From an uncultured Alphaproteobacteria bacterium (GTDB taxonomy: Bacteria; Pseudomonadota; Alphaproteobacteria; HIMB59; GCA-002718135), in the NCBI GenBank assembly GCA_902518705.1, contig CABYHW010000004.1:4084-68083 (forward strand): a stretch of 64,000 bases of DNA. The letters run 5' to 3'. Position 1 is the first letter of the stretch. Each line of letters opens with the position of its first letter. Below are positions 11,817 through 55,415 of this stretch, piece after piece. Below the pieces are notes generated by a model. The model was not told the origin of the DNA. It saw only the letters and a list, made by a program, of their open reading frames with translations, and did no database searches. The translations under genes and the position numbers were made by a program.

Positions 11817-12947
11817 TTATTTAAATGCTTCGCCTGAACTATCAAATAATTGGCATCTTCCAGCAGGGAATCCTACTTTTACAGTATCACCAACTTTGAT
11901 TTCAGAATGTCCTTCAGTTTCAGCAACTAATGGCTCTCCATCTTTTTCAAGGTATAGATAAGAAACGTCACCAAGCTTTTCGACAACAAATACTTTACTT
12001 TCCCAAGACCCATCCGCATCACCATTTACTACTAAGTGCTCTGGTCTAATGCCTAAAGTTACTGAATCACCCTCTGAAGATGATGCTGACATTTTAGAGA
12101 CTGATATTTTTGACATTCCCATAATATCAACTTCTGTAGCATCAGAACTTTTGCTTAATATCTTACTTGAAATAAAGTTCATTTTTGGTGATCCAATAAA
12201 CCCACCTACGAACATATTATTTGGTTTATCATAAAGTTCTAGTGGTGATCCTTTTTGTGAAACTATACCTGTATCAAGTACAACAATATCATCAGCTAGA
12301 GTCATAGCTTCTGTCTGATCGTGTGTAACATAGATCATTGTTGCTTCTAGTTCATTATGCAGTTTTGCTAATTCAACTCTCATTTGAACTCTTAATGCAG
12401 CATCAAGGTTTGAAAGCGGTTCATCAAATAAGAAAACTTTTGGCTTTCTGGTAATTGCTCTCCCAATAGCAACACGCTGTCTTTGACCACCTGAAAGTTG
12501 TTTAGGTTTTCTTTGAAGATAATCTTCTATTTGAAGAATTCTTGCTGCCTCATTTACTCTTTCATTAATTTCATCTTTTGATCTTTTTTCTAGTTTTAAA
12601 CCAAACGCCATGTTATCAAATACAGTCATGTGAGGGTATAATGCATACGACTGAAACACCATTGCAATATTTCTTTGCTTTGGTGGTAAATCATTAACTA
12701 CCTGACCATCAATTGAAATTGTGCCTGAATTTATATCTTCTAGTCCCGCTATCATTCTTAACATAGTTGATTTACCACAACCACTTGGGCCAACTAAAAC
12801 TGTGAATGATTGACTTTTTATATCAAGAGAAACATCCTTAATTACATGGACGTCTCCAAAATATTTATTAACAGTATTTATATTTATATCTGCCACTTCA
12901 TCCTCCTTTGAGCGATCTTTCAAGTGTATGAATACATCATCATACAA
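11817..12947 (-). CDS. CUT1 ABC transporter ATP-binding protein (MalK/UgpC/MsiK family)
   Basis: 376 aa. Walker A GPSGCGKST, signature LSGGQRQR, Walker B FLFDEPLSNLD, VTHDQ, and a C-terminal MalK-type regulatory domain (GSPKMNF). Confidence 0.9.
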   Translation of the reverse strand: MYDDVFIHLKDRSKEDEVADININTVNKYFGDVHVIKDVSLDIKSQSFTVLVGPSGCGKSTMLRMIAGLEDINSGTISIDGQVVNDLPPKQRNIAMVFQSYALYPHMTVFDNMAFGLKLEKRSKDEINERVNEAARILQIEDYLQRKPKQLSGGQRQRVAIGRAITRKPKVFLFDEPLSNLDAALRVQMRVELAKLHNELEATMIYVTHDQTEAMTLADDIVVLDTGIVSQKGSPLELYDKPNNMFVGGFIGSPKMNFISSKILSKSSDATEVDIMGMSKISVSKMSASSSEGDSVTLGIRPEHLVVNGDADGSWESKVFVVEKLGDVSYLYLEKDGEPLVAETEGHSEIKVGDTVKVGFPAGRCQLFDSSGEAFK

Positions 12948-16595: not shown

Positions 16596-16657
16596 CAGTT
16601 TTATATTTTGTTGATTTTGCTCAAGAAAAAATTCAAATATAAATCTTATATTTATTC

Positions 16658-17653
16658 TTATGATGGCACAATTTTTGAAATATAAAATGAATTATCCTTA
16701 TTTTGTTTAATTATTGCTGGAATAATTTCCTTATATGCATCAAATAAACTAGTATTTGCTTTTGGTAATTGATTCTTAATTAAATTACTTAATTTAGGTA
16801 AATTGTAAGATGGCACAGATGGAAACATGTGGTGTTCAACATGATATTCCATATGCCAATATAAAAAACTAAAAATTGGATTTAAGCGCACTGATCGAGT
16901 TGTAAATCTGTGATCTTTAATATCTTCAGGTAGACCAATATGTTGAGTTTGATTAAAAAGTTCAATAATATTTCCCCAATACCTAGGAAAGAAAATTAGA
17001 AGAGCTGGAAGTGGATTCATTAAATAAATGGATATTACAAAAGATGCTATCCATATTGTAACATGTATTCTTGAAATAAGTCTACATTTCCAAATTTCAT
17101 TTTGAGGTATGCAATCTCTCATAACAGGAGTTGTAAGCCCAATAGCATGTTTAATAGTTTCAAATTTCCATGAGTCTTTAAATTTTATTAACTCTGCGAA
17201 TGGTACAAAGCTAAATAGAAAACTTTGAAGAGTTGGATATTGATGGAATAATGCAGCTTCATAATCATGAGGGTCTTTTACTGAAGCAGTGTTGCTATGA
17301 TGTCTAAAATGGCTCCACGTCCACCTTGTAGGCTCAAAGTCTGTCATAAAAGAACCTATTTGATAAAAGATTTCATTTAAATATTTTGATTTGAAAGCTG
17401 TTCTATGACCACATTCGTGCCAGATAGGGTTACTTGCGTAAAATAAAACACCATAAAGCCATAGCCATAATACAGTCCACCATGTTCCCCAAGTTACTGC
17501 AGACATGTATCCAAAGAAAAATAGTAATATGAAATATATGGTAACGTGCTGTAATCCCTTAAGATCACTTTTTTTTGATAATAGTTTTAAGTCTTTTTTA
17601 CTTATTTCGGCCCTAAACCATTTAGTATCTACGTTATCTAATTCTTCTGACAT
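16658..17653 (-). CDS. Membrane di-iron oxygenase of the fatty-acid desaturase/hydroxylase superfamily (paralogue A)
   Basis: 331 aa. Three His boxes HECGH, HFRHH, HVEHH, with hydrophobic spans between them. About half the positions look identical to the ORF at 23886-24899. Confidence 0.8.
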   Translation of the reverse strand: MSEELDNVDTKWFRAEISKKDLKLLSKKSDLKGLQHVTIYFILLFFFGYMSAVTWGTWWTVLWLWLYGVLFYASNPIWHECGHRTAFKSKYLNEIFYQIGSFMTDFEPTRWTWSHFRHHSNTASVKDPHDYEAALFHQYPTLQSFLFSFVPFAELIKFKDSWKFETIKHAIGLTTPVMRDCIPQNEIWKCRLISRIHVTIWIASFVISIYLMNPLPALLIFFPRYWGNIIELFNQTQHIGLPEDIKDHRFTTRSVRLNPIFSFLYWHMEYHVEHHMFPSVPSYNLPKLSNLIKNQLPKANTSLFDAYKEIIPAIIKQNKDNSFYISKIVPS

Positions 17654-17712
17654 TGATCTTTTATAAAAAAATTGATGAAAATATAAAGATAAAAATCAAC
17701 TATTTTGACACA

Positions 17713-18768
17713 CTAAACATCAACCCATTTACCAATTTCATTACTTTCTATACATTTATCAATAATATTTTGAATTTTTGCACCTTGATAAAAATCTGGT
17801 TGCATATTCAGGTTTGTTTTTATTGATTCTATAAAATTTTTATAATTACTGGGTGTTTTGGGGCACTCAATTGTATCCCAAGACATTTTATTGATATTTT
17901 CATTTATACAAATGTGAAGAGTCGACCATTTGGTCCTTTCTTCATCAAGCTCAACCTTTACAGCACCCTTTGTACAAAATACTTCTAAGATTATGGAATT
18001 TGCATGTCCGGTTGCATATCTTGTATTTGTTATTGTTCCAATAGCTCCATTCTCAAATCTAACTAACGAATTGAAACCATCATTAGCATCTAATGTATAT
18101 TCTTTTATTTTATTTCCTTTATCGAAGTATGTTTTTAAATCAGTACAAATCTCTTTTATGTCACCTACTGCATTAACAGCAAAATCAAAAATATGAACAC
18201 CCGTATCCCCTAAAGCACCGTTACTTCCATGTTTTGTTGATAGTCTCCACAACCATTTGTCTTCTTCTCTCCAATCACCCCATTTATTACTTGTAAGCCA
18301 AGACTGATAATAACAAGCACTAACATGTCTTGGGCTTCCTATTTCACCAGATTTTAATATTTCAACTAATCTTTGATATGCACTTGACTCCCTATAAGTA
18401 AAATTAATCATATTAATTTTTTTAGATTTTACTGCCGCATTTACCATATCTTTTGCATCACTATAATTTTCAGCAAGTGGTTTCTCACAAAAAACATTAT
18501 AACCACTTTTTAAAATTTGTAGTGTAGTTTCTTTATGAAACTTATCAGGTGTTGTATTGCTAATACCATCAAAAGTTTTTTCTTTTTCAAGCATTTCTTC
18601 TAAACTCAAATATCCTCTGATATCTGCATTTTTATTATTTGATAAAAATATTTCTAAATTTTTTTGATTTGTATCACAAACAGCTTCAACATTAACATTT
18701 GGCATATTGTTAAATTCATTAAGATGTCTTGAAGAAATATTTCCTGTTCCAACAATACCAATTTTCAT
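17713..18768 (-). CDS. Gfo/Idh/MocA-family NAD(P)-dependent oxidoreductase (ThuB/IolG-like)
   Basis: 351 aa. N-terminal Rossmann KIGIVGTGNISSRH, EKPLA motif, typical C-terminal alpha/beta domain. Confidence 0.85.
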   Translation of the reverse strand: MKIGIVGTGNISSRHLNEFNNMPNVNVEAVCDTNQKNLEIFLSNNKNADIRGYLSLEEMLEKEKTFDGISNTTPDKFHKETTLQILKSGYNVFCEKPLAENYSDAKDMVNAAVKSKKINMINFTYRESSAYQRLVEILKSGEIGSPRHVSACYYQSWLTSNKWGDWREEDKWLWRLSTKHGSNGALGDTGVHIFDFAVNAVGDIKEICTDLKTYFDKGNKIKEYTLDANDGFNSLVRFENGAIGTITNTRYATGHANSIILEVFCTKGAVKVELDEERTKWSTLHICINENINKMSWDTIECPKTPSNYKNFIESIKTNLNMQPDFYQGAKIQNIIDKCIESNEIGKWVDV

Positions 18769-18769
18769 T

Positions 18770-19552
18770 TTATTTTTCTTCTGTTGGATGTCCTACACTA
18801 AAACCTTTCTTACTAATCTTTTCAATAGGTCTTGGTCTATTACTTTTCGGAGTTGGAGAGTGTATGTCTTCCCACAAAATTTTATTTTTTTGTTTTACAA
18901 AATGTATTGCATTTGTGATTACTTTTTGCACATTAATATTATGGTAAGTTGGATAAGCTTCGTGACCTGGTCGAAAATAAAATATTTGACCATTTCCTCT
19001 TCTGTATAGTAATCCAGATCTAAATGTTTCTCCTCCTTCAAACCAACTAGTAAAAAGGGTTTCATCTGGAGAAGGAACTTGAAAAGGCTCACCATACATC
19101 TCTTCCATTTCTATTTCAAAATATGGATCTAAACCCTCACAAATAGGATGCCCAGGATTGCATATCCATAATCTTTCTTTTTCTCCATATTCTCTCCAAG
19201 TTAGATTGCAATTGGTACCCATTAATCTTTTAAATATTTTAGAATGGTGTCCGGAATGTAATACTATCAAACCCATTCCCTCAAGAACTCTTCTTTGAAC
19301 CAACTCAACGGTAGAATCTAAAACCTCTTCATGGGCTTTGTGACCCCACCAAATGACAACATCACAATTGTTTAATAATTCTTCACTCAATCCATTCCCA
19401 TCTTCTTTGAGTGTAGCAGTTTTAATTTTTAAATTAATATCAGTTGATAAAAAATCTTTTATGCTGTTATGAATACCCTGAGGATAAATTTTTTTAACTT
19501 TTTCATTTTCTACTTCATGAATATTTTCATTCCAGATAATTACATTTGTCAT
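18770..19552 (-). CDS. thuA: ThuA-like (trehalose utilisation protein A family) protein
   Basis: 260 aa. VIIWNENIHE, DVVIWWGHKAHEEV, GMGLIVLHSGHHSKIFKRLMGTNCNLTWRE, EMYGEPF, FRSGLLYRRGNGQIFYFRPGHE are characteristic ThuA-family blocks. Confidence 0.8.
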   Translation of the reverse strand: MTNVIIWNENIHEVENEKVKKIYPQGIHNSIKDFLSTDINLKIKTATLKEDGNGLSEELLNNCDVVIWWGHKAHEEVLDSTVELVQRRVLEGMGLIVLHSGHHSKIFKRLMGTNCNLTWREYGEKERLWICNPGHPICEGLDPYFEIEMEEMYGEPFQVPSPDETLFTSWFEGGETFRSGLLYRRGNGQIFYFRPGHEAYPTYHNINVQKVITNAIHFVKQKNKILWEDIHSPTPKSNRPRPIEKISKKGFSVGHPTEEK

Positions 19553-19558
19553 TTTGTT

Positions 19559-20533
19559 TTATCTAACTCTTTCTCCATGAAGACGATGTCCTAATAATGC
19601 TAACAATATAATTAAACCATTAAAGAATTGTCTCCATTCACCACTCCAACCTATTGCTATTATACCAATTTCCATATAGGCAATTATTCCTACGCCAAAG
19701 ACTGCCCCAATGATCGTACCCAATCCCCCCCAGTAAGGAGTGCCGCCAACAAACACTGCCGCGAGAGCTAATAACAAATATCCAAAACCCTGAGTAGGAA
19801 AAAATGTATATGTAATCATAGTGGTAAATATTCCACCTATAGCTGCACCAACACCAACAAACATAAAAGCTTTTATTTTAACAGCATTTACATTAATACC
19901 CATTTGTTCTGCACTAACAGAATTATCTCCTACATGCTGAATATGAATACCAAAAACATGTTTGTTAAAAAAATAGTAACAAAAAATTACAAATATTGCT
20001 GCCCAAAAAATTTGCATTGGGAAGCCATAAAAATTTCCAACTAAAAGAGGGTAGATCCAGTGGTTCTCTACTTCCATAATCGTAATGGATCTGCTGTTAG
20101 ATAATAAGAGAATTACACCTCTCAATAAAAATAATACTCCAAGTGACGCAACAAGAGAGGAAAGTCTAAATACAACAATTAATGTTCCAACGAGAGCACC
20201 AATAGCTGCTCCAGTAAAAATACCAAGAACTAAACAAATAGCTGGATCAACTCCATTTTTAACAAGTAAAGCAAATATATAAGCTGCTACAGCGTAAGTA
20301 GAGGCAAAGGAAAGATCTATTTCACCAGATGCAACTAGAAAAACTAATGGTATAGTTAAAAATATCAAAGTTGGCATCATTACAAATACTGATTGATGAA
20401 GGTTAGGCCTTATCCAAGCTTCTGGTGCACCTATTAAAAAAATTACCATTAATAGAACAAAGTATCCAATGCTTCCTAAAGCCCTTCCATTTCTGTGAAA
20501 GTAATTACTTAAATATGAATTATTTTTACTCAT
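19559..20533 (-). CDS. CUT2 (ribose/fructose-type) ABC transporter permease
   Basis: 324 aa, Gly/Ala-rich polytopic protein of RbsC/AraH/FrcC type. Confidence 0.8.
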   Translation of the reverse strand: MSKNNSYLSNYFHRNGRALGSIGYFVLLMVIFLIGAPEAWIRPNLHQSVFVMMPTLIFLTIPLVFLVASGEIDLSFASTYAVAAYIFALLVKNGVDPAICLVLGIFTGAAIGALVGTLIVVFRLSSLVASLGVLFLLRGVILLLSNSRSITIMEVENHWIYPLLVGNFYGFPMQIFWAAIFVIFCYYFFNKHVFGIHIQHVGDNSVSAEQMGINVNAVKIKAFMFVGVGAAIGGIFTTMITYTFFPTQGFGYLLLALAAVFVGGTPYWGGLGTIIGAVFGVGIIAYMEIGIIAIGWSGEWRQFFNGLIILLALLGHRLHGERVR

Positions 20534-21279
20534 TAGTGTGCCTTTATTGTTTCTCGCATTATCTTCATGAGTTCTTCTGGTGTTGATACATCATTTTTAT
20601 TAAGTTGATGAACAACTTCTCCTCTATCTAAAATTACAAATCTATCCGATATATCATATACATGATAAATGTTATGACCAATAAAAAGAACTGATCTATT
20701 TGATTTTTTTACATTTAGGACAAAATCAAAAACTTTCTGTGTTTCATTAAGAGATAAGTTATTTGTTGGCTCATCAAGAACAATTAATTCTGCTTTATTA
20801 TAAATTGCTCTTGCAATTGCTACGCCTTGTCTTTCACCTCCGGATAAATTTCCAACAGGAGATTCAGCATTAATTAATTTTGATGTAAAACCTATTTCTC
20901 TTATTAATCTATTTGCTTCAAAAATTTGTTCTTTTTCTTTTATAAAACCAAATGGGTATCGAAGTTCCTTACCCATAAAAATATTTTTAACTATCGATTG
21001 TTGTGGAGTTAAAGCTCTATCTTGAAAAACAGTTTCTATACCAGACTCTCTAGCCTTGAGGGCATTCCAAGCGTTTACTTTTTTTCCTCTTATTAGTATA
21101 TCACCTTCGTCAGGACTATATACACCTACTAGTGTTTTAATTAATGTTGATTTACCTGCACCATTATCACCAATTAAACCTACCACTTCACCCCTGGTTA
21201 CTTTTAATGATGCTTTGTTTAGAGCAGTAATACCGCCAAACCTTTTTGTAACATTATCTAATTCAATGATATTTTCCAT
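20533..21279 (-). CDS. ABC transporter ATP-binding protein, single cassette (FrcA-like)
   Basis: 248 aa. Walker A GDNGAGKST, signature LSGGERQ, Walker B LIVLDEPT, GHNI. It is half the size of the usual duplicated CUT2 ATPases. Confidence 0.85.
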   Translation of the reverse strand: MENIIELDNVTKRFGGITALNKASLKVTRGEVVGLIGDNGAGKSTLIKTLVGVYSPDEGDILIRGKKVNAWNALKARESGIETVFQDRALTPQQSIVKNIFMGKELRYPFGFIKEKEQIFEANRLIREIGFTSKLINAESPVGNLSGGERQGVAIARAIYNKAELIVLDEPTNNLSLNETQKVFDFVLNVKKSNRSVLFIGHNIYHVYDISDRFVILDRGEVVHQLNKNDVSTPEELMKIMRETIKAH

Positions 21280-21291
21280 AAAATTTGAAAT

Positions 21292-21315
21292 GCTAACCCA
21301 TTAAAATGGGTTAGC
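21292..21315 (-). terminator. Stem-loop between binding-protein and ATPase genes (attenuator)
   Basis: gctaaccca-ttaaaa-tgggttagc, a perfect 9-bp stem 12 nt after the binding-protein stop. Confidence 0.5.
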
Positions 21316-21326
21316 AATATATTTAC

Positions 21327-22322
21327 CTATCTTAAGCCTGCATCAGCAAGAGCTTTAACAGCTTGATAATTATTTGTATCAACAAATCCTGCACCAGTAT
21401 CTTGGTTTATTGCACCAGTACCAAGTACAGCTGTTTGACAAAGTGACAATACTGGAAGATACCCTTGAAGAAAAGGTTGTTGATCAGATGTTAGATGAAC
21501 ATATCCTTTTTCAAACGCCGACATAATTTGTGGACTTGTATCAAATCCAATTTGAAGTAACTCATCTGGTCCATAACCAGCAGCTTTGGCAATACCTTCC
21601 GCAACATTCATTACATCACTACCAGAGTGAACAATTACTTTTGTTTCAGGATTGGCATTTAACGCTGCTGAGAAAACTGGGATAGTCATATTTGGATCTG
21701 AAGCATAAGCTGGTTGTCCATCAAGAACAGTAACTGTCATTCCGTGTTCTTCAAATATGATTCTTGCACCATCTTCTCTTTGAGCTCTAGCGTAATCTCC
21801 AATAGGAACCATTACTATAGCGTGATCTCCAGCTTTGAAACCAAATTGCCTAATTGCTTCTCTTGCAAGAGCTTTACCTTGAGTTGCTAAATTTGCTCCT
21901 ACGTATCCGCCACCAAATTTTGCTCTTACACCTGATGGATCAACGTTTTGATATGTCATTAGAATACCCTTTTCAGCGGCTTGTTTTGCTAAAGGCATTA
22001 GAGCTTCATCTCCTGGATGTCCCATCATTGCAATAGCATCAACACCAAGTCCAACTGATTCTCTAAGTTGACGGACCATTTTTTCAAAATCCCATTCTGA
22101 GTATATAATTTCGGCGTCAGCTCCAGTATCTCTAATAGCATTCATAGCTCCTGCTGCAACTATTCCAGCAAAACCTCCTGCTTCAGGACCACCTGCATAG
22201 AAATGCATTTTTACATCTGAGCACCATTTATCACCTAGGTCTTGTCCAGTTGGAGCAGCATAAGCTTGCATAGAAACTGGAAAAAGAAATAAAGTAATAA
22301 GAAGTAATTTAATAATTTTCAT
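21327..22322 (-). CDS. Periplasmic sugar-binding protein (RbsB/LacI-type fold, CUT2)
   Basis: ORF 21327-22334. Preferred ATG at 22322 behind GGGAGG (complement of 22327-22332). Signal peptide MKIIKLLLITLFLFPVSMQAYA. Ala/Gly-rich type I PBP pattern. Confidence 0.8.
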   Translation of the reverse strand: MKIIKLLLITLFLFPVSMQAYAAPTGQDLGDKWCSDVKMHFYAGGPEAGGFAGIVAAGAMNAIRDTGADAEIIYSEWDFEKMVRQLRESVGLGVDAIAMMGHPGDEALMPLAKQAAEKGILMTYQNVDPSGVRAKFGGGYVGANLATQGKALAREAIRQFGFKAGDHAIVMVPIGDYARAQREDGARIIFEEHGMTVTVLDGQPAYASDPNMTIPVFSAALNANPETKVIVHSGSDVMNVAEGIAKAAGYGPDELLQIGFDTSPQIMSAFEKGYVHLTSDQQPFLQGYLPVLSLCQTAVLGTGAINQDTGAGFVDTNNYQAVKALADAGLR

Positions 22323-22403
22323 ATTTCCTCCCACGGATTTATTTTTAACATTAATATTAAATAATAATAATAAAGTTTAACAAAAATAACTTGTAAATGT
22401 CAA

Positions 22404-44656: not shown

Positions 44657-44677
44657 TTATTATTATTATTATTATTA
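44657..44677. repeat. (TTA)7 trinucleotide microsatellite in a divergent promoter region
   Basis: Seven perfect TTA units beginning 6 nt upstream of the aldolase start codon (minus strand). Confidence 0.9.
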
Positions 44678-44815
44678 TATTTAAATATAATTACTATTAA
44701 AATTAACTCGTAAATATATAATTCTCAAACTTTAGAGGTATTTTGCCCTACTAAATACAATCAACTTGCAGTGATTTTAAAATTCTTTAATGTAATATTA
44801 TTAAATGGAGGAATT

Positions 44816-46144
44816 ATGATTAAAACAGTAATAAGTTTTGTATCTGTAATTATTTTATCTACTTCTTTTTCTGCAATATCAAAAACCAAGGTAACTTGGT
44901 CGATGGAGTCTAATGCAGATAGAGACCCAATAATGATTGAAAAATTACAAAATGCTTACAACAATTCTCAAGGCAATTATGAACTCGTTATCGAATTTGA
45001 AGATAATGAAACAAGATTAACTTCAATGAGAACTGCTATGATTGGTGGTATGGGTCCTGATATCGTCGAGACTCCTGGTCCATCTTATGTAAAAGAGTAT
45101 CATGCAGCTGGTATGTTAGAAAATTTAGATTCATACGCTGCAGAATTTGGCTGGAAAGATAAGATGATACCTTGGGCTTATAGTTCAGGAGTTTTCGAAG
45201 GAAGTTTATACGCAATTCCAAAAACTCATGAATCAATGGTTATGCTTTATAATAAAACTTTATTTGAAGAAAATAATTGGAAAGTACCAACAACATTAGA
45301 AGAATTAGAAGATGTTGCTGGCAAAATTAAAGCAAAAGGTATGAATGTATTTTCATATGGATCAGATGGATGGCAACCTACTCATGAACACCTTGTAGGA
45401 ATTTATTTAAATAACTATGCAGGTCCTCAAGCTGTATATGAAGCAATAATTGGTGAAAGAGAATGGACAGATCCTGTTTTTGTTGAAGCTCTTGAGTTAC
45501 TTAAAAAACATATGGTTGACGAGGGATATTGGTCTGGAAGCCTAGAAAATTATTATGCTATTGGATGGGATGATTTCCATGCTCAATTTGCTAATAGAGG
45601 GGCAGCTATGATGACAATTGGTACTTGGACTTTTCAAGCAACACAATTAGGTATTGGTGCGAGCGGTGATGAATGGGGTTGGGCTCCACTTCCATCTCTA
45701 TCTTCGCAATCTCCAGATCCTAATTTTATGATTGCAATTGGTACAACTATGTCAGTTAATGCAAATGGTAAAAATAAAGATGGTGCGATAGATGTTTTAA
45801 ACTGGATAATGAGTAACAAAGACAAAGTTCTTGATATTGCTAAAGACTTTGAATTTGGAGAAATGGTAGTTCCATTAACTTTATCTAGCAGTGATATTCC
45901 AACTGATATTGCTCCTCAAGTTCAAGATTATCTAAGCGAATATGCAAGAATTACCGGCGAAGGTAATTATGGATATTGTACTTGGACTTTTTGGCCTGCT
46001 GACCCTGGTGTTCATATTTGGAAAGATATGGAAGTTGTATGGGCTGGCGATATATCTGTTGAAGATTTCTTATATGATCATCAAAAGATGTGGGATAAAG
46101 CTAGAAAAAATGGCGACACTTTACCAGTTCCATTAAGAAACTAA
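44816..46144 (+). CDS. Extracellular solute-binding protein (family 1, carbohydrate type)
   Basis: ORF 44771-46144. Preferred ATG 44816 behind GGAGG (44807-44811). Signal peptide MIKTVISFVSVIILSTSFSA. W/G/Y-rich CUT1 binding-protein pattern. Confidence 0.85.
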   Translation: MIKTVISFVSVIILSTSFSAISKTKVTWSMESNADRDPIMIEKLQNAYNNSQGNYELVIEFEDNETRLTSMRTAMIGGMGPDIVETPGPSYVKEYHAAGMLENLDSYAAEFGWKDKMIPWAYSSGVFEGSLYAIPKTHESMVMLYNKTLFEENNWKVPTTLEELEDVAGKIKAKGMNVFSYGSDGWQPTHEHLVGIYLNNYAGPQAVYEAIIGEREWTDPVFVEALELLKKHMVDEGYWSGSLENYYAIGWDDFHAQFANRGAAMMTIGTWTFQATQLGIGASGDEWGWAPLPSLSSQSPDPNFMIAIGTTMSVNANGKNKDGAIDVLNWIMSNKDKVLDIAKDFEFGEMVVPLTLSSSDIPTDIAPQVQDYLSEYARITGEGNYGYCTWTFWPADPGVHIWKDMEVVWAGDISVEDFLYDHQKMWDKARKNGDTLPVPLRN

Positions 46145-46158: not shown

Positions 46159-46182
46159 CAGTGAAGCTTCAAAGCTTCACTG
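46159..46182 (+). terminator. Stem-loop after the binding-protein gene (attenuator)
   Basis: cagtgaagctt-ca-aagcttcactg, a near-perfect 24-nt palindrome 15 nt after the stop, followed by TATTT. Confidence 0.5.
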
Positions 46183-46190
46183 TATTTAAA

Positions 46191-47066
46191 ATGAAAATAT
46201 TTTCTAATAAAAATTTTGTTGCCTGGTATTTTGTCTTTCCTGTTGCATTCATTCATTTATTTGTAATAGGCATTCCATCACTTGCAAGTTTAGCGTTATG
46301 TTTAACTGACTGGAGAGGGCTTGGTGAAATAAATTATATTGGTTTTGAAAATTTTATAGAACTATTTGATGATAGATATCTTAAAAAGGCAATTATTAAT
46401 AATGTAATCTGGACTATTGCTTTCCTAACTGTACCAGTTGGAATCGCATTAACTTGTGCTTATCTACTTACAGGAATTAAAAGAGGCCAAATGTTTTTTC
46501 GACTTGCTTTCTTTTTTCCTTACATGCTTGCAAGTGTAATTAATTGTCAAATTTGGAAATATTTATTTCACCCAATTCATGGTCTTGGAGGTTTTTTTGA
46601 GAGGATTGGTTGGGATTTTTTAGCAGTATCTCCATTTACTATGAAATCTACGTCTTTATTTGCAGTAGCATTTGTAGATGGTTGGCATTTTTGGGGTTTT
46701 CTTGTGGTTATATATTTAACAGGAATGTATCAAGTTGATAATCATCTTTACGAAGCTGCAGATATTGAGGGAGCAACAAAATTTCAAAAATTTAGATACA
46801 TAACTTTACCAATGATTAGACCAGTTTTTGTTTTTAGTATTATGATTATAATTATTTGGTCTGTTCCAGTGTTTGATTATGTATATATTTTAACAGGTGG
46901 TGGTCCTGCATACAGTTCAGAAGTAATAGCAAACTATATGTATTCTCAAGCATTTGAGAGATTTGATGTTGGATACTCTTCTGCAATAGGAACACTAATG
47001 TTTTTTTATGTTATGATTATAGTTGCTTTGTTTGGTCTTTTTAGAAAAGCTGGGTGGGATATCTAA
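46191..47066 (+). CDS. CUT1 ABC transporter permease (MalF-like)
   Basis: ORF from GTG 46161, which lies inside the hairpin; ATG 46191 preferred. EAA loop YEAADIEGATKFQKFRYITLPM. Confidence 0.85.
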   Translation: MKIFSNKNFVAWYFVFPVAFIHLFVIGIPSLASLALCLTDWRGLGEINYIGFENFIELFDDRYLKKAIINNVIWTIAFLTVPVGIALTCAYLLTGIKRGQMFFRLAFFFPYMLASVINCQIWKYLFHPIHGLGGFFERIGWDFLAVSPFTMKSTSLFAVAFVDGWHFWGFLVVIYLTGMYQVDNHLYEAADIEGATKFQKFRYITLPMIRPVFVFSIMIIIIWSVPVFDYVYILTGGGPAYSSEVIANYMYSQAFERFDVGYSSAIGTLMFFYVMIIVALFGLFRKAGWDI

Positions 47067-47902
47067 TGATAGTTGCAAAATATAGAAGTAGAGAAGTGAT
47101 ATCCAATTATATAATACTAATTATATTTGCTTTGATAGCTATACTGCCTCTAGCAGTTCTTTTATTTAATTCAATTAAGCCTCAAATGGAGTTTGGCGTA
47201 AATCCACTTGGACCTCCAAGTGAAATAAGATTTGAAAATTTTAGTGAAGCTTGGGTTAAGGGAGAATATGCTAAAGTTTTTTTTAATTCTTTAAAGTTAG
47301 TTGCTGGATCAGTATTATTGTGTCTTGCAGTTTCACTTGCAGCGGGATTTAGTCTTGCAAAATTAAATCCAAAAGGATCTGCAATAATCGCTGTTTACCT
47401 TTTAGTTGGTATAAGTATTCCTGCACAACTTTATATCGTGCCTTTGTTCTTATTATGGAAGGAGATACATCTTTTAAATACACATATAGGATTAATTATA
47501 ATCTACACAGCTTTAAATGCACCATTTGCAACTTTCTTAATTAGATCTTACATGATTAGATTGCCAGATGAGCTATTTGAAGCTGCACGACTTGATGGAG
47601 CTAATACTTTTCAACTTTTTTTTAGAGTTGCGCTACCTCTTTCATGGCCAGTTATTTTAACTGCAGGATTAATAATAGCTCTTGCAGTTTGGAATGAATT
47701 TTTATTTGCTTTAACTTTTATTAGTGAAGAAGGTTTTAAACCTATGGCTACTATATTATTTGCATTTCAGTGGAGATTTGAAAATAATTACGCACTGCAA
47801 AGCGCATCAGCGATAATGATGGTTGCGCCTGTGGCAATTCTTTTCATGCTATTTCAAAGGAGATTTATTTCTGGATTAACTAGTGGAGGATTAAAAGGTT
47901 AA
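47054..47902 (+). CDS. CUT1 ABC transporter permease (MalG-like)
   Basis: EAA loop FEAARLDGANTFQLFFRVALPL. Start is ATG 47054 or ATG 47066 (TAATG overlap with the upstream stop). Confidence 0.85.
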   Translation: MGYLMIVAKYRSREVISNYIILIIFALIAILPLAVLLFNSIKPQMEFGVNPLGPPSEIRFENFSEAWVKGEYAKVFFNSLKLVAGSVLLCLAVSLAAGFSLAKLNPKGSAIIAVYLLVGISIPAQLYIVPLFLLWKEIHLLNTHIGLIIIYTALNAPFATFLIRSYMIRLPDELFEAARLDGANTFQLFFRVALPLSWPVILTAGLIIALAVWNEFLFALTFISEEGFKPMATILFAFQWRFENNYALQSASAIMMVAPVAILFMLFQRRFISGLTSGGLKG

Positions 47903-50065
47903 ATGAATTACAAGTTAGACAAAAATTATGAAGAAAAAGTTTATGCAGGTGTTTTGGGAAAAATTATAGGTGTATTTCTTGGAAGGCCTTTTGAAGGTTG
48001 GACCTATGAAAGAATAATGAAAGAGTTAGGTCCAATAAATTATTATGTAAATGAGAAATTAGATTTTCCCTTACCAGTTTCAGATGATGACATTACCGGT
48101 ACATTTACCTTTTTACGTGCTTTTAGAGAGTGCAATTTTAAAAAAAATATTACTGCTAAAGATATAGGTAAAACGTGGTTAAATAATATTATTGAAGATA
48201 AAACAATTCTATGGTGGGGAGGAAAGGGACATTCAGCAGAGGATACAGCTTTTCAAAATTTAAAACAGGGCATTGATGCACCTGATAGTGGTTCCATTAA
48301 AACTAATGGTAAGGTAATTGCTGAACAAATAGGAGCTCAAATTTTTATTGATGGTTGGGCCATGGTAGCACCTGGCGATCCAGAAAGAGCAGTTCATTAT
48401 GCTAAACTTGCTGCAAGTGTTAGTCATGATGGGGAGGCAATTTATGGCGCACAAGTTGTAGCTGCTCTAGAGTCAATGGCCTTTGTCGAAAGTGATTTAA
48501 CAAAGCTAGTTGAGCAAGCTAAAAAGTTTATCCCAGATAATTCACTAATATTTAGATTAATATCTGACATACAAGAATGGCGATCTGGAAATTTAGGTTG
48601 GGAACAAGCAAGAGAAAAAATTGCTGAAAATTACGGATACGATAAATATTTAGGTAACTGTCATATGGTACCCAATCATGCTTTAATTATTATGGCTTTA
48701 CTATTTGGAGATGATGATTTTCAAAAAACTATGATGATTGTGAATACAGCAGGTTGGGACACAGATTGTAATTCAGGAAATGTTGGTTGTATTTTAGGAA
48801 TTAAAAATGGAATAGAAGGACTAAAATCAGGTCCTGATTATTTGTCTCCTATCAATGATATTTTATATTGCCCCTCTGCATCAGGAGGTGAAACACTTAC
48901 TGACGCACTGACAGAAACTTATAAAATAATTAATACAACTAGAAAAATTAATGGTTTAGAAGAAAATTTACCTAAAAATGGAGCTAGATTTCATTTTGAT
49001 ATTAAAGACTCAACACAAGGTTGGCGAACAAGAGTTGGAAATAATTTTTGTGAAACAAAAATCAGTAATGTTGAATACAAATCTTCATTAGGAGAAAGAG
49101 GTTTAAAAATTGCATATAAAAATCTTTCAGAAGATTTAACTTCAGAAGTTTATGTAGAAACATTTTTTCCTGAGGTTATTTTAGATTTAAAAGGAAAAAA
49201 AAGAGATGATTTCTTTCATTACGATTATATTTCTTGTCCAACTATTTTTCCAGGTCAGAAAGTAACTTTGGAAATAGAAAATATATTTTCTCATGAAATC
49301 TCAATCACATTATTCTCAAAATATTGGGGTGAAAATGATAAACTCCAAAAAAATTCTTCAAATATTTTTAATTTAAGTGGAAATGAAAAAAAACAAATAT
49401 CTTGGAATGTGCCTGACACTAGCTCAAACCCTATTGGTCAAATCGGCTTTAATATCGCATCAAAGGAAAAAAAAGATGGAGAAGTTGTTATTAACTACGT
49501 CAATTTTGAAGGAGAACCGAAACAAATATTTAAAAGACCTGATCACGTAGAAAATTATCAAAGAGGTAAAGAAAAAAAAGAGGGTTACTATGGTGAAATT
49601 TGGAGAAATGCATGGGTTCAATCATTAGACAAATGGGAAAAGAGAGGTAAAAATTTTAGAATTTGCCAAAATAATGGTAGGGGAATTTTATTTACTGGAA
49701 CAGATTTATGGAGAAATTATTCAATTGCATCAAATATTATGTTGCAGTCTAGTAACTCTGGAGGAATAGTATCAAGAGTCCAAGGTGTAAATAAATACTA
49801 CACCTTTGAAATTTGTAAAGGCAACAAGTTACGCATTGGAAAGATGAATAATGATTATAAAATATTAAAAGAAGAAGAATTTGGTGTAGAATTTTTTAAA
49901 GAATATAATTTAAAAATGACAGTAATAAAAAATAAAATTATTGGACACATTAATGATAAAATTATTATTGAAGTTGAGGATGATCATTCTCCTTTTCTTA
50001 AAGGTGGAGCAGGTTTAGTTGTTGATAGCGGGACTTTAGTAACAGAACAGATAATCTTAAATTAA
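47903..50065 (+). CDS. ADP-ribosylglycohydrolase-family domain fused to a ~380-aa C-terminal beta-rich region
   Basis: 720 aa. N-terminal third to half carries ARH-family blocks (GVLGKIIGVFLGRPFEGW, VSDDDITGT, NTAGWDTDCNSGNVGCILG). The last ~130 aa (NYSIASNIMLQSSNSGGIVSRV...LKGGAGLVVDSGT) looks like a ConA-like/DUF1080-type beta-sandwich. Confidence 0.75.
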   Translation: MNYKLDKNYEEKVYAGVLGKIIGVFLGRPFEGWTYERIMKELGPINYYVNEKLDFPLPVSDDDITGTFTFLRAFRECNFKKNITAKDIGKTWLNNIIEDKTILWWGGKGHSAEDTAFQNLKQGIDAPDSGSIKTNGKVIAEQIGAQIFIDGWAMVAPGDPERAVHYAKLAASVSHDGEAIYGAQVVAALESMAFVESDLTKLVEQAKKFIPDNSLIFRLISDIQEWRSGNLGWEQAREKIAENYGYDKYLGNCHMVPNHALIIMALLFGDDDFQKTMMIVNTAGWDTDCNSGNVGCILGIKNGIEGLKSGPDYLSPINDILYCPSASGGETLTDALTETYKIINTTRKINGLEENLPKNGARFHFDIKDSTQGWRTRVGNNFCETKISNVEYKSSLGERGLKIAYKNLSEDLTSEVYVETFFPEVILDLKGKKRDDFFHYDYISCPTIFPGQKVTLEIENIFSHEISITLFSKYWGENDKLQKNSSNIFNLSGNEKKQISWNVPDTSSNPIGQIGFNIASKEKKDGEVVINYVNFEGEPKQIFKRPDHVENYQRGKEKKEGYYGEIWRNAWVQSLDKWEKRGKNFRICQNNGRGILFTGTDLWRNYSIASNIMLQSSNSGGIVSRVQGVNKYYTFEICKGNKLRIGKMNNDYKILKEEEFGVEFFKEYNLKMTVIKNKIIGHINDKIIIEVEDDHSPFLKGGAGLVVDSGTLVTEQIILN

Positions 50066-50068: not shown

Positions 50069-51052
50069 ATGAAATATAGAAAATTTGGCTCTCTTGATTG
50101 GAATGTATCTGAAATAGGTTTAGGCTGTTGGCAGATTGGCGCTGATTGGGGAAAGGTTAGTGAAGAGAAGGCAAATGAAGTATTACAATCATCATTTGAA
50201 AATGGAGTAAACTTTTTTGATACAGCTGATGTATATGGTGATGGTAGAAGTGAAAAATTTGTGGGAAATTTTATAAATTCTATTTCTGAGAGAATTTATG
50301 TAGCAACAAAAGCTGGTAGACGTATTAACCCACACGTTGCAAACGGTTATTATGATAAAGATTTAATGGAGTCATTTGTAGACCGATCATTATCAAATCT
50401 AAATATTGAAACTATTGATCTTTTACAAATGCATTGTCCTCCAACAGAAGTTTATTCATCAGATAATACTTTTGAAATGTTAGATTACTTAGTAGGTAAA
50501 GGAAAAATACAAAATTATGGGTTTAGCGTTGAAACAGTTGATCAAGCATTAGAATGTATAAAAAAACCTCAAACAAAGTCTATTCAAGTTATCTTTAACA
50601 TTTTTAGACAAAAACCTGCGGAACAATTATTTAAAATAGCAAAAGAAAAAAAAGTAGCAATTATAATTAGAGTTCCTCTTGCTAGCGGTTTGTTATCAGG
50701 AAAATTTGATAAAAATTCTTCTTTTGTCTCTGACGATCACCGAAATTATAATATTAACGGTGATGCATTTGATGTTGGTGAAACATTCTCTGGTGTTAAT
50801 TATTCAAAAGCATTGGAAGCAGTTGAAGAACTTAAAAATATTATTCCAAATGAAGTAACTCTTTCTCAATTATCTCTTAAATGGATTTTAATGCATGAAG
50901 CTGTGAGTGTTGTTATTCCGGGTGCAAAAAATAAGGATCATGTAGATCTAAATACTGCCTCTAGTGAAGTTAATGAAATTTCTTCTTTAATGAATAAAAT
51001 AAATCAAATTTATACAAAATATTTCTATGATGATGTACATCATCGTTGGTAA
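50069..51052 (+). CDS. Aldo/keto reductase
   Basis: 327 aa. GLGCWQIG, FFDTADVYGDGRSE, IDLLQMH, VIPGAKN. Confidence 0.85.
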   Translation: MKYRKFGSLDWNVSEIGLGCWQIGADWGKVSEEKANEVLQSSFENGVNFFDTADVYGDGRSEKFVGNFINSISERIYVATKAGRRINPHVANGYYDKDLMESFVDRSLSNLNIETIDLLQMHCPPTEVYSSDNTFEMLDYLVGKGKIQNYGFSVETVDQALECIKKPQTKSIQVIFNIFRQKPAEQLFKIAKEKKVAIIIRVPLASGLLSGKFDKNSSFVSDDHRNYNINGDAFDVGETFSGVNYSKALEAVEELKNIIPNEVTLSQLSLKWILMHEAVSVVIPGAKNKDHVDLNTASSEVNEISSLMNKINQIYTKYFYDDVHHRW

Positions 51053-52206
51053 TAAATTTTGTGTTAGAAGAAACTAAGATATTTAGAAGAGCAACTCTTG
51101 CATCAATAATAACATCAACTTATCCCATGATAGTTGTTGGATGTTACTTCGGTATTACTCCGTGGAATATGAACAGATTGTCAATTGATGAAACTGATTT
51201 GAGTTTTTCAATATTAATTTTTGGAATTTTTTTTGTGTTATCAAATCAAATAGCTGGAAGAATATTAGTCCCAAAATATGGAACAAGGTTAGTTATGTCT
51301 TTGGCCTTTCCACTAATTACCTTTTCTTCATTGTTATCGATAACATCTTCATCATATCTTTATTTTTTATTAACTTTTATTCCAGCTGGGATAGGATGGG
51401 GGGCTTCTGGACCGATTGGAGGCATACATTGTCAACTAATTGAAAAATATTTTAAGAAAATTATTACTCCTTATTACGCTATGGGTTTCAATATTGGTAT
51501 TCTTGTTGGTGGAGGTTTGGCGGGTATAATTATGCGTTACAACTTTGAGCCTTATATTTTTTTTCTAGTTTTATCTTTTTCTTCAATATTAGTTGCATTC
51601 TTAGTTCTTCATCTAGGATTACCGAGTAATTTAGATTTTAAAGGTAAAGGTGAAAAATTTAAAATTCCAGAGTCAAATGTTCTTATATTTGGTTTCTTAT
51701 TATTTTTTGTTTTTGGTTCTGGCGGTATAATTATGGATTGGTCAACATTATGGCTATCAAAAGATTTAAATGCCCCTCTTTATCTTGCAAGCATGGGTTT
51801 AATATTTTTTAGTATTGGAGGTATTTTTGCGAATTTATTCTCTAACACTTTAATTAATTTATTTACTGAAAAAGTTGTAGGATGTCATTTTGTGATGATT
51901 GGCGCATTAGTAATGTTTTTATCTTTATTAACAAACAATTTTTATATTATACTAGGAATCTTATGTATTTATGGATTTGCTATAGCAAACTTGGTTCCTA
52001 TAGTCATTCGCCAAGCTGTTAAGCAGTCTAACGAAAGTATTCCTATGACAGTAACTAATCTCATAACCATTGGATTATCTTCCACAATGATTATGCCAGC
52101 GGCAATCGGTTTTCTTGCAGAAACATTTTCGCTAACTTTGAATATGTATTTACTATCTATTATTGTTTTTACTTCTGGATTTGTTTTTTTACTTAAGTTT
52201 AAATGA
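51046..52206 (+). CDS. MFS transporter (paralogue 2)
   Basis: 386 aa, about 12 TM. N-terminal block PWNMNRLSIDETDLSFSILIFGIFFVLSNQIAGRILVPKYGT parallels the MFS at 37659-38813. Confidence 0.8.
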   Translation: MVINFVLEETKIFRRATLASIITSTYPMIVVGCYFGITPWNMNRLSIDETDLSFSILIFGIFFVLSNQIAGRILVPKYGTRLVMSLAFPLITFSSLLSITSSSYLYFLLTFIPAGIGWGASGPIGGIHCQLIEKYFKKIITPYYAMGFNIGILVGGGLAGIIMRYNFEPYIFFLVLSFSSILVAFLVLHLGLPSNLDFKGKGEKFKIPESNVLIFGFLLFFVFGSGGIIMDWSTLWLSKDLNAPLYLASMGLIFFSIGGIFANLFSNTLINLFTEKVVGCHFVMIGALVMFLSLLTNNFYIILGILCIYGFAIANLVPIVIRQAVKQSNESIPMTVTNLITIGLSSTMIMPAAIGFLAETFSLTLNMYLLSIIVFTSGFVFLLKFK

Positions 52207-53796: not shown

Positions 53797-54210
53797 TTAT
53801 TTTTTTGAGTTAAAATTATCCATTTTTCGAAGTGTCTTTTCACTTACGTGATGCTCTATTCCTTCAGCATCTTCAGAGGCCGTATTTTTGTCTAAACCAA
53901 GATTGCGTAAAAAATTGTAGACTATATTATGCCTTTTTCTTGATTCACTTGCTATTTTTTGACCTTTAAAAGTTAAAAAAATTGATCGATAAGGTTCTCT
54001 TTTAATGTAACCCTGTGTTTGTAATCTTTGTATTGTTTTATTGGCTGTGGCTTGTGCAATACCCAAACTTTCAGCAATATCAACAATACGAGCTTCTCCT
54101 CTAGAATTTAACAGTTCTGCAATTAGTTCTAGATAATCTTCAGTATTTTCTGTTTTATGAGCATTTCGGACTTTACTGAATGACATCCCTTTTTTTAACA
54201 TAATAATCAA
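53797..54210 (-). CDS. mntR: DtxR-family manganese-responsive transcriptional regulator
   Basis: 137 aa. TEDYLELIAEL, winged-helix ARIVDIAESLGIAQATANKTIQRL, RHNIVYNFL, EGIEHHVS. Confidence 0.8.
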   Translation of the reverse strand: MIIMLKKGMSFSKVRNAHKTENTEDYLELIAELLNSRGEARIVDIAESLGIAQATANKTIQRLQTQGYIKREPYRSIFLTFKGQKIASESRKRHNIVYNFLRNLGLDKNTASEDAEGIEHHVSEKTLRKMDNFNSKK

Positions 54211-54266: not shown

Positions 54267-55415
54267 ATGAATGCGCTAATTAATGCTATTAATGAAAAAA
54301 CAAAGATCATTCTTGAGAATGATGGAAGGTTATTAAAGAAATCTTTCTTTGGTCTTTTACTACTTTCCCTTGTTTTTCAAGGGGGTGAATTTGGTGATGC
54401 TATAAGATCATCAATGATTGATGCTTATATTCAAGTATCTGTTTTTGTTGGATTTACTCTTTTTGTTTTTATTGGCTTGGATAGTTTAACAAAATTTGAT
54501 GTAAAGAATTTTTTAGCTAAAACGCAAAAGTTCCATGTTGGTATAGCTGCGTTTTTAGGTGCAATACCTGGATGTGGTGGAGCTATAATAGTTGTGACAC
54601 AATATATTCAGGGCCGTATTTCTTTTGGGTCTTTAGTAGCGGTATTAACAGCAACAATGGGCGATGCAGCTTTTTTAATACTTGCTATTGAGCCCACAAC
54701 AGGATTTTTAATATTTGGTATTGGAATAATTGTTGGATCAATTTCAGGTTATATAATTGATTTTATTCATGGCATAAATTTTATGCAATCAGAGACAAAA
54801 ATAAAAGTTGAATTTGAAAAAATAAATAAAACTTTTGTATCGAATTTTAATTTCTTTTGGCTTTTTTTATTTATTCCTGGTTTTATTTTAGGTATTCTAG
54901 TTGCATTCCAGATAGAATTTTCACCAGCTTATAACTCACTTTTAGTTTTTGTAGCTTCAGCTGGAGCAATACTTTCAATATTTATGTGGTCATTAAATCC
55001 ATTAAGTGATTTTCAATGCTCAACTGACAAAAGCAGAGGATTATTATCAAGAGTAGTAGATACAACTAATTTTGTAACCACCTGGGTCATTAGTGGTTTC
55101 CTTGTCTTTGAAATATTTATGTACTTTACAAGTTTAGATTTAAAAATATTTTTTGATTTATGGCTACCGTTTGTTCCATTAGTAGCAATATTATTTGGGT
55201 TTTTACCTGGTTGTGGACCGCAAGTTGTTGTGGCAACGTTTTATCTAAATGGCTATATTCCTCTTTCTGCAGAGCTTGGTAATGCTATTTCAAATGATGG
55301 TGATGCTTTATTCCCAGCAATTGCTCTTGCCCCAAAAGCTGCGATTTTAGCAACTCTTTATAGTGCAATTCCTGCATTAGTTGTTGCCTACGGATATTTT
55401 TACCTATTTGAGTAA
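54267..55415 (+). CDS. mntX: Putative manganese transporter of the MntX type (10-TM, two PGCG repeats)
   Basis: 382 aa polytopic protein with internally repeated motifs [15 protein letters not shown]...MGDAAF and [15 protein letters not shown]...NDGDALF. Divergent from mntR with a palindromic operator between them. Confidence 0.55.

Follow-up and report, generated by a model that had tools for sequence, protein, structure and literature searches.

Why does a gene for an ADP-ribosylglycohydrolase (ARH), a member of a family that has been studied almost exclusively for the removal of ADP-ribose marks from proteins and nucleic acids, lie directly behind the permease genes of a sugar importer? 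The question is raised by a gene that we call ARHf (ARH fusion), which encodes 720 amino acids within a 64,000-nucleotide stretch of DNA from an uncultured alphaproteobacterium (contig CABYHW010000004.1, positions 4,084 to 68,083; hereafter the window). An original prediction, made from the sequence alone, had proposed that its product is a hydrolase of small glycosides or ribosides rather than a protein de-ADP-ribosylase. A conserved transporter linkage and kinases adjoining the gene in eight loci support this preference for what remains a predicted activity. We consider it rather probable that ARHf works in the cytoplasm as a metal-dependent hydrolase of a small imported glycoside, with a ribofuranoside as the leading, unproven sub-case; in our judgement, it most likely splits a glycoside rather than repairing ADP-ribosylated proteins.

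The open reading frame (ORF) of ARHf starts with ATG immediately after the permease ORF that ends at 47902, in a window with a G+C content of about 29%. A search of 5.8 billion proteins gave 7,897 or more homologues, almost all with a length of about 720 amino acids, which shows that the gene is real. The 120 best homologues all have this length and 55-98% identity and stem mostly from marine metagenomes, and the closest genomic relatives (94-96% identity) are found in single-cell genomes labelled as uncultured Alphaproteobacteria. Together with the Pelagibacteraceae label on homologues of a neighbouring aldo/keto reductase, this marks the source of the window as a SAR11-type bacterium. Inspection of the translation revealed no signal peptide at the N-terminus, and the protein is thus predicted to be cytoplasmic.

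The ARH-family signatures that the original prediction had placed at the N-terminus are all present in the translation, namely AGVLGKIIGVFLGRPFEGW at residues 15-33, VSDDDITGT at residues 59-67 and GWDTDCNSGNVGCILG at residues 284-299; the C-terminal strings quoted there were located at residues ~605-711. Residues 16-308 match the Pfam family ADP_ribosyl_GH (PF03747) over profile positions 2-285 of 287 and far above its cut-off (176.5 bits against 26.2; E 1.2e-51), and all 22 aligned family members match it as well. Pfam returned nothing significant on the remaining ~400 residues, and NCBIfam had no model for ARHf and gave no DraG or Tri1 match. A full-length AlphaFold2 model built on 25 homologues was moderately confident overall (predicted local distance difference test, pLDDT, 70). 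Its ARH domain is predicted as all-helical, with ~17 helices in residues 7-349, at a low pLDDT of 31-70 for much of its length; using Foldseek, the helical part of this low-pLDDT model was matched to ARH3 (6g1p; probability 1.0, template-modelling score by target, TMt, 0.61). When the PDB was searched with a profile of 22 diverse family members, MJ1187 (1t5j) was found with an E value of 5e-8, a match that was only marginal when ARHf was used as a single sequence. ARH3, ARH1 and DraG were not reached by the profile even at E ≤ 10, so that the ligands were mapped on MJ1187 only.

This mapping predicts a metal site composed of Glu31, an acidic triad and a second block of four residues (Table 1). 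In an alignment of 22 family members that are 31-70% identical to ARHf, Asp62 and Thr287 are invariant, and Glu31, Asp61, Asp63, Asp286, Asp288 and Cys289 are each at least 90% conserved. In the tandem paralogues described below, Glu31, Asp61-Asp63 and Asp286-Thr287-Asp288-Cys289 are invariant. The site residues are therefore conserved in the 22-sequence alignment and in all tandem paralogues, contrary to what a missing metal site would imply, and the acidic ligands expected for a binuclear Mg/Mn site are predicted to be present and conserved in ARHf. The last ligand position is occupied by Cys289, where MJ1187 carries Ser and classical ARHs carry Ser or Thr. One divergent relative, P0161 (737 amino acids; alignment A2), keeps the three-domain layout and has lost the acidic motifs: VNDALNTG stands where SDDDITGT is expected, and GWGTAAN where GWDTDCN is expected. 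Judging by these motifs, P0161 is probably a catalytically dead paralogue.

The ~380 residues that follow the ARH domain had been called uncharacterised, with a ConA-like sandwich of the DUF1080 type at their end. They do lie beyond the ARH domain, and our models resolve them further into two β-sandwich domains, adding a middle domain that resembles the carbohydrate-binding modules (CBMs) of families CBM22 and CBM4. In the full-length model, pLDDT reaches 85-92 over residues ~450-550 and 600-720, and 83-95 for the C-terminal domain. A separate model of residues 362-556 (sub-alignment A4) had a pLDDT of 86.6 and a predicted template-modelling score (pTM) of 0.82, and a Foldseek search of the PDB with the middle domain yielded 2c26, 4xup (CBM22), 6r31 (CBM11) and 3k4z (CBM4) with E values of ~1e-6 and scores by query (TMq) of 0.5-0.6, as well as a resemblance to CBM16 and CBM30/44 jelly rolls. 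For the C-terminal domain, the top Foldseek matches were 3zr5, the lectin domain of mouse GALC, together with 4ccc and 5nxb; CBM66 (4azz; TMt 0.81, root-mean-square deviation 2.0 Å) and galectins were also matched. The family profile aligned with the CBM66 levanase 4b1m over ~160 residues (E 1.3e-6) and, more weakly, with the C-terminal sandwich of an endo-levanase of glycoside hydrolase family 32 (GH32). PF21708, the C-terminal lectin domain of GH59, was matched by 5 of the 22 family members, with P0113 above the cut-off, and had no match in ARHf itself. The ConA-like character of the last ~130 residues is thus borne out by the CBM66 and GH59 lectin matches. The DUF1080 type has to be given up: PF06439 had no match in ARHf and none in the 22 members at E ≤ 0.01, and its lone match, in the homologue P0095, stayed below threshold (14.8 bits against a cut-off of 26.8; E 0.029). 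According to the models, then, the C-terminal ~380 residues are folded, and ARHf joins an ARH catalytic domain to a jelly roll that resembles CBMs and to a lectin-type domain of ConA-like character.

The C-terminal part of this architecture is not found apart from the ARH domain. Using the C-terminal 380 residues as the query of an exhaustive HMMER search, we retrieved 709 relatives. Among them, each full-length protein (700-790 amino acids) of 24-33% identity has PF03747 at its N-terminus; relatives as distant as ~25-30% identity, from SAR11-type Alphaproteobacteria, Chloroflexota, Bacillota, Rhizobiales, Deinococcus and Enterobacter, still have all three domains. Apparent stand-alone C-terminal modules turned out to be fragments whose N-termini begin inside the ARH domain or which match PF03747 partially, and the three-domain fusion is therefore obligate.

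The second line of evidence is the transporter. The original prediction had placed ARHf directly behind sugar permeases of an ATP-binding cassette (ABC) importer, and this position was confirmed by two BPD_transp_1 permeases preceded by an SBP_bac_1-type solute-binding protein (SBP). To compare it across phyla, we scanned one genome per species, which gave at least 597 ARHf loci, and analysed 79 of them; transporters were counted in those 57 loci for which 4 kb or more of upstream sequence was available, using the window neighbours as BLAST queries. The loci come from SAR11-type single-amplified genomes, many Chloroflexota (including Anaerolinea thermolimosa and Ktedonosporobacter), metagenome-assembled genomes of Bacillota, SAR324, Rhizobium and Bradyrhizobium. 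Further carriers, known from plasmid records, are Agrobacterium, Ensifer, Sinorhizobium, Nitratireductor, Deinococcus and Enterobacter hormaechei, with the gene annotated only as 'ADP-ribosylglycohydrolase family protein', the sole annotation that RefSeq gives the family. Rather than lying consistently outside transporter contexts, ARHf was preceded in 32 of the 57 loci, from several phyla, by the orthologous SBP-permease-permease set, with a CUT1 permease pair on the same strand that ends less than 3 kb upstream (identity at least 37%), and an SBP orthologue lay upstream in 36 loci. In other phyla, the orthologues upstream of ARHf are 38-56% identical to permease 1 and 37-54% identical to permease 2 of the window, compared with 24-32% for other CUT1 permeases in the same loci, which shows that the transporter is an orthologue co-inherited with ARHf. 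Homologues of ~30% identity in Ensifer and Nitratireductor have the same cassette, accompanied by LacI and UgpC.

Genes of sugar metabolism and regulation recur around the cassette. Clustering of the neighbours placed a LacI regulator in 24 loci and GFO/IDH/MocA oxidoreductases in 7. PfkB kinases adjoin ARHf in eight loci, and in Chloroflexota the gene order is SBP, permease, permease, ARHf, PfkB. Three of these kinases are ribokinases (L014, L025 and L028; 334-373 bits against a TIGR02152 cut-off of 299.65); the five others, directly downstream of ARHf, fall far below that cut-off. FGGY and ROK kinases and Zn-dependent alcohol dehydrogenase-type oxidoreductases are present in some other loci. 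By its components, an SBP and two permeases upstream of ARHf, the linked transporter is classified as a CUT1 carbohydrate importer, to which an ATPase is assigned provisionally (see below). Because ARHf and a dedicated sugar importer travel together across several phyla, hydrolysis of an imported glycoside is the most likely role.

Based on these findings, we propose the following working model. The CUT1 binding protein would capture a small glycoside outside the cell, probably of di- or oligosaccharide size, and the two permeases would import it, energised by a shared MalK-type ATPase encoded elsewhere. In the cytoplasm, the acidic metal site of the ARH domain, which is presumably binuclear, would cut the glycosidic bond of a furanosyl, most likely a ribofuranosyl, group, while the two CBM-like β-sandwich domains may recognise the remainder of the substrate. 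In loci with a linked ribokinase, this enzyme would then feed the liberated ribose into metabolism. Ribose is the most likely product because the chemistry of the ARH family is hydrolysis at the ribosyl C1'' position, because true ribokinases are linked in three loci, and because ARH genes have been noted in ribose-utilisation loci of Bacteroidetes.

Several observations weigh against this model. At the site itself, Cys289 replaces the usual Ser/Thr ligand, and the ARH domain of the full-length model has low confidence in the range given above. A bona fide ribokinase was found in only 3 of the 79 loci, and the SAR11 loci lack one in the window, with an aldo/keto reductase (AKR) and a major facilitator superfamily (MFS) transporter there instead. 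In addition, no CUT1 permease lies within 5 kb of the gene in 21 of the 57 loci. The neighbours in these transporter-less loci are a mixed set without a common theme, which includes a sulfatase, a leucine-rich-repeat protein, DUF6785, a ROK kinase, an esterase, a protein kinase and others. Finally, the nearest relatives of the C-terminal domain are fructan-associated modules (CBM66 and the GH32 C-terminal domain), which points to furanosides generally and not to ribose.

The last point leads to a closely related explanation, in which the same cassette serves a glycosidase for a non-ribose furanoside or another sugar, such as a fructofuranoside, arabinofuranoside, galactofuranoside or apioside, on a re-purposed ARH fold. 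It is favoured by the C-terminal domain, whose sequence and fold are related to those of fructan-binding CBM66 and of the GH32 levanase sandwich, by the five downstream PfkB kinases that are not ribokinases by score, by the FGGY and ROK kinases and GFO/IDH/MocA and Zn-dependent oxidoreductases of other loci, and by the site motifs GVFLGRPFE, DDD and DTDC, which differ from those of classical ARHs (GDAxGxPxE in the short ARH neighbours described below). To our knowledge, however, all characterised ARH-family enzymes (ARH1, ARH3, DraG) act on a ribosyl C1'' linkage, true ribokinases adjoin in three loci, and a short ARH paralogue of the canonical type is frequently encoded alongside; we therefore regard a non-ribose substrate as rather unlikely. 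Ribose could also be released by ARH3-like chemistry from nucleotide-derived compounds imported as dissolved organic matter, for example ADP-ribose, O-acetyl-ADP-ribose, NAD-derived ribosides, nucleosides or alpha-ribazole. Such scavenging would agree with the family membership of ARHf, with the phosphorylated ligands carried by UgpB-type CUT1 systems (the linked ATPases are annotated as UgpC) and with the precedent of the rus loci, in which ribose is proposed to be scavenged from ribose-containing nutrients. We think it improbable, since two CBM-like domains in a LacI/CUT1 sugar context fit carbohydrate aglycones better, the closest solved relatives of the SBP were deposited as sugar, xylo-oligosaccharide or chitin-oligosaccharide binders, and classical ARH3, ARH1 and DraG lie beyond sequence-profile detection.

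The other two explanations dispense with the imported glycoside. If ARHf removed ADP-ribose from proteins or nucleic acids as a classical regulatory enzyme or antitoxin, in the manner of DraG, Tri1 or DarG, the transporter neighbourhood would be coincidental; Pfam membership and the 21 of 57 loci that lack a nearby CUT1 transporter are consistent with this. Against it stand the orthologous transporter linkage across phyla, the linked sugar kinases and LacI regulators, and a length of 720 amino acids with CBM-like modules compared with ~300 for DraG. PADLOC also found no defence-system match for ARHf, and no partner ADP-ribosyltransferase was found in the immediate neighbourhood (the transporter, AKR and MFS genes), to which the search was limited. 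Taken together, we judge a de-ADP-ribosylase very improbable. Even less credible to us is a catalytically inactive, crystallin-like or sensor-type ARH-fold binding protein, an idea suggested by the divergent P0161 without acidic motifs and by ARH-like domains of the same subfamily that are fused to a LacI-type helix-turn-helix (HTH) in some Chloroflexota, implying ligand sensing. The acidic site residues are invariant or nearly so in ARHf, its paralogues and 21 of the 22 aligned members, and ARHf is the sole hydrolase of the uptake cassette, which argues for catalysis.

Several proteins related to ARHf are encoded around the cassette. In five Chloroflexota loci, a short canonical ARH (~380-400 amino acids; GDAxGxPxE, YTDD) is encoded directly upstream of ARHf (L011:8790-9923, L021:8857-10002, L034:8777-9925, L051:8849-9994 and L061:8723-9994), and one lies nearby in L038 and L048. 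The pair of a short and a long ARH occurs in Ensifer and Nitratireductor too (L084:7755-8960 and L085:7838-8995), both members being annotated as ADP-ribosylglycohydrolase family, and is not present in SAR11 loci. Proteins of ~536 amino acids with an N-terminal LacI-type HTH fused to an ARH-like domain are encoded on the minus strand at L057:2844-4454 and L023:253-1869, divergently from an SBP gene. Their ARH-like domain belongs to the GWDTDCN subfamily (32% identity over 336 residues to the ARH domain of the window, E 1e-42), and from this arrangement they look like transcription factors that use the ARH fold as a ligand sensor. A third group, ARH-like paralogues of ~580 amino acids with G(W/Q)DSD(C/N) motifs, adjoins the cassette in Chloroflexota (L057:4670-6403 and L042:3874-5604 on the minus strand; L025:12148-13917 and L032:2771-4519 on the plus strand); their signal-peptide or lipoprotein-type N-termini suggest extracellular members of the subfamily. 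The Enterobacter hormaechei locus L082 lies in a 517-kb plasmid-typed record (CP103578.1, 'plasmid' pMB8072_1, 332573-354657), in which LacI, ARHf and SBP genes are inserted between chiP and glnS and surrounded by the housekeeping genes glnS, fur, fldA, seqA, pgm, nagABE and asnB. The record has the look of a replicon derived from a chromosome, or of one that was mis-assigned. Of the transporter, only the SBP is listed there, in a PLSDB gene table that is incomplete, so permeases may exist.

Among related Pelagibacteraceae, the same chromosomal site carries one, two or four tandem full-length copies of ARHf. We found a single copy in the window, L002, L003 and L086, two copies in L087 and L088 (4649-8997), and four copies in L001 (5592-14347), L004 (2423-11174), L005 (5586-14341) and L008 (5586-14341). 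The tandem copies are 51-71% identical to each other, and the site residues are intact in all that were checked. Comparing one-copy with four-copy types gives an identity of 82-95% for the flanks, but only ~51% for the SBP and 64-70% for the permeases; the cassette thus diverges much faster than its surroundings.

Table 1. Features of the ARHf locus and of the candidate energising ATPase (positions in the window)
Feature	Position	Strand	Basis
ARHf gene, 720 amino acids, stop codon included	47903..50065	+	ORF listing and translation
N-terminal domain of predicted ADP-ribosylglycohydrolase fold, catalytic, residues 1-350	47903..48952	+	PF03747, MJ1187 profile match, Foldseek ARH3, helix prediction
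Glu31 of the GRPFE motif, predicted metal ligand	47993..47995	+	Aligned to Glu of 'GMPTE' in MJ1187
Asp61-Asp62-Asp63, predicted acidic triad of the metal site	48083..48091	+	Variant of the classical T/S-D-D motif
Asp286-Thr287-Asp288-Cys289 of GWDTDCN, predicted second metal-site block	48758..48769	+	Aligned to 'GGDTDS' in MJ1187
Middle β-jelly-roll domain, residues 362-545, CBM22/CBM4/CBM11/CBM16-like (predicted)	48986..49537	+	AlphaFold2 sub-model and Foldseek
C-terminal ConA-like lectin-type domain, residues 575-720, CBM66/GH59 C-terminal lectin-like (predicted)	49625..50062	+	AlphaFold2, Foldseek, profile
CUT1-type periplasmic SBP	44771..46144	+	SBP_bac_1 / SBP_bac_8
ABC permease 1, MalF/UgpA/GlcT-like	46161..47066	+	BPD_transp_1; NCBIfam GlcT/UgpA-like
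ABC permease 2, MalG/UgpE/GlcU-like, stop abuts ARHf start	47054..47902	+	BPD_transp_1; NCBIfam
AKR, possible downstream partner	50069..51052	+	PF00248
MFS transporter, overlaps AKR stop, unit membership uncertain	51046..52206	+	PF07690; position conserved in Pelagibacteraceae loci
MalK/UgpC-type ABC ATPase of a second CUT1 system	11817..12947	-	ABC_tran, OB_MalK, TOBE_2

In the window, a minus-strand gene for an HpcH aldolase is followed on the plus strand by genes for the SBP, two permeases, ARHf, the AKR, the MFS transporter, a CN-hydrolase and a methyltransferase, whose ends overlap or abut. The nearest solved relatives of the SBP are 4g68, 3vxb, 7ehp and 3zkk, and its match to the SAR11 glucose-binding protein SAR11_0769 (8hqq) is marginal (E 1e-5). 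The mechanically called SBP ORF starts with GTG at 44771; ATG at 44816, with GGAGG ahead of it, gives the signal-peptide-like N-terminus MIKTVISFVSVIILSTSFSAIS and is, on these features, probably the true start. The AKR, whose homologues are labelled Pelagibacteraceae, follows ARHf copies in L001-L005, L008 and L086-L088, a linkage that is kept only within Pelagibacteraceae; in most other phyla it does not adjoin ARHf. To see whether the AKR and MFS genes are chromosomal backbone rather than part of the cassette, we looked for Pelagibacteraceae loci with the AKR and without the cassette; the three long contigs studied all had the cassette.

No ATPase, LacI or ribokinase gene was found in or near the cassette, and tblastn of the window detected no ribokinase, LacI or short ARH. 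The only candidate in the window that could energise the ATPase-less cassette is the MalK/UgpC-type ATPase of the second CUT1 system, which is 50% identical to a UgpC encoded directly after ARHf in Agrobacterium (L081) and which we infer to be shared. The cassette promoter must be located in the divergent intergenic region of 120-165 bp between the HpcH aldolase and SBP genes, where a microsatellite-like (TTA/TAT)n run, ttattattattattattata, lies at 44658-44680. In DNA so rich in A and T, a scan for promoters and terminators was not informative: it marked 63 promoter-like sites, where 55 were expected. Two tRNAs were the only matches to Rfam in the window at the gathering threshold, with no riboswitch preceding the cassette.

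Two more sugar uptake systems make the minus strand at 11817-22334 unusually sugar-rich for a SAR11-type genome. The second CUT1 system (11817-16550) is complete, with an SBP (15189-16550), two permeases and the ATPase. It is separated by a fatty-acid desaturase gene from a CUT2-type system (Peripla_BP_4 SBP at 21327-22334, an ATPase and a BPD_transp_2 permease), which adjoins genes for ThuA (18770-19552) and a GFO/IDH/MocA oxidoreductase (17713-18768). Downstream of the ARHf cluster, a divergent gene for an iron-dependent-repressor-type regulator (53797-54210, minus strand) is followed by one for a 382-amino-acid membrane protein (54267-55415); for the orthologues of this pair in L001 and L086, Pfam gives matches to Fe_dep_repress and ArsP_2. 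Arsenosugar ribosides as a link between these genes and the cassette are speculation on our part.

How does ARHf compare with known systems? With ARH3, ARH1, DraG and MJ1187, the closest solved sequence, it shares PF03747 and, with MJ1187, aligned acidic motifs; its catalytic domain is predicted, at low confidence, to be all-helical like theirs. It differs in being more than twice as long, with two added β-sandwich domains, in its GVFLGRPFE, DDD and DTDC motifs (Cys for Ser/Thr), and in its context, which is a sugar importer and not an ADP-ribosyltransferase partner. The original prediction had named the E. coli yegTUV cluster as a precedent, and the comparison is apt, as a ribokinase or other PfkB kinase adjoins ARHf in the eight loci described. 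In yegTUV, which is repressed by a dedicated regulator, the ARH-family gene yegU likewise stands between genes for a transporter and a PfkB kinase, as in the Chloroflexota order. The transporter there is of the nucleoside-type MFS rather than ABC, YegU is described merely as a predicted ADP-ribosylglycohydrolase, and yegTUV itself is uncharacterised; it therefore offers an analogy, not an explanation. The rus polysaccharide utilisation loci of Bacteroidetes combine one or more ribokinases, a transporter, a regulator (LacI being the second most common) and variable hydrolases, including ADP-ribosylglycohydrolases, that are proposed to liberate ribose from unidentified ribose-containing nutrients. 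ARHf loci resemble them in this combination and differ in that rus loci use SusC/D-type outer-membrane uptake and the RusT permease, occur in other taxa, and have ARH genes not reported to be CBM-fused. The C-terminal domain is like CBM66, the C-terminal module of the B. subtilis levanase SacC, and the GH32 endo-levanase sandwich by profile and fold. The identity to CBM66 is ~18%, with a similarity of overall sequence and fold, and in ARHf the module sits in a predicted cytoplasmic ARH enzyme and not in a GH32 protein. The C-terminal domain also resembles the lectin domain of galactocerebrosidase (PF21708), in ARHf by fold and in 5 of the 22 members by sequence as well, and the ARHf catalytic domain is unrelated to the TIM barrel of GH59.

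The ARH family is already well known, and RefSeq already files ARHf proteins there. A literature search yielded a mention of SAR11_1227, the still unassigned function of yegTUV and the rus-locus precedent; it found no paper describing the function, three-domain architecture, variant site motifs or CUT1 co-inheritance of ARHf, its radiation into secreted or HTH-fused forms, or its tandem amplification in SAR11.

ARHf is widespread: besides the loci counted here in species-representative genomes, there are thousands of metagenomic sequences. The protein appears to be devoted to breaking down an imported glycoside, which would extend the chemistry of the ARH fold into carbohydrate metabolism, and if the glycoside role is true, it may represent a new glycoside hydrolase family. 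A bolder view, which we put forward tentatively as possible rather than probable, is that the family founds a new, metal-dependent class of furanosidases on the ARH fold that acts on free, imported oligosaccharides or glycosides with ribofuranosyl or other furanosyl groups, and not on ADP-ribosylated macromolecules, and has radiated into cytoplasmic CBM-fused enzymes, secreted forms and LacI-HTH-fused sensors. Strains of Rhizobium, Ensifer, Agrobacterium and Enterobacter that can be cultured also have the cassette, which makes the system directly testable. SAR11 genomes are minimal, which makes each of their transporters ecologically informative. The SBP of the cassette differs from the glucose-binding SAR11_0769, the only characterised sugar SBP of SAR11, and the cassette with its 1-4 tandem enzyme copies suggests that marine dissolved organic matter contains a class of substrates still to be identified. 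If the reading as a new furanosidase class is true, ARHf would mark in Pelagibacteraceae, where its one, two or four tandem copies follow a single dedicated, high-affinity importer, an unrecognised class of dissolved organic carbon that is consumed by the ocean's most abundant heterotrophs.

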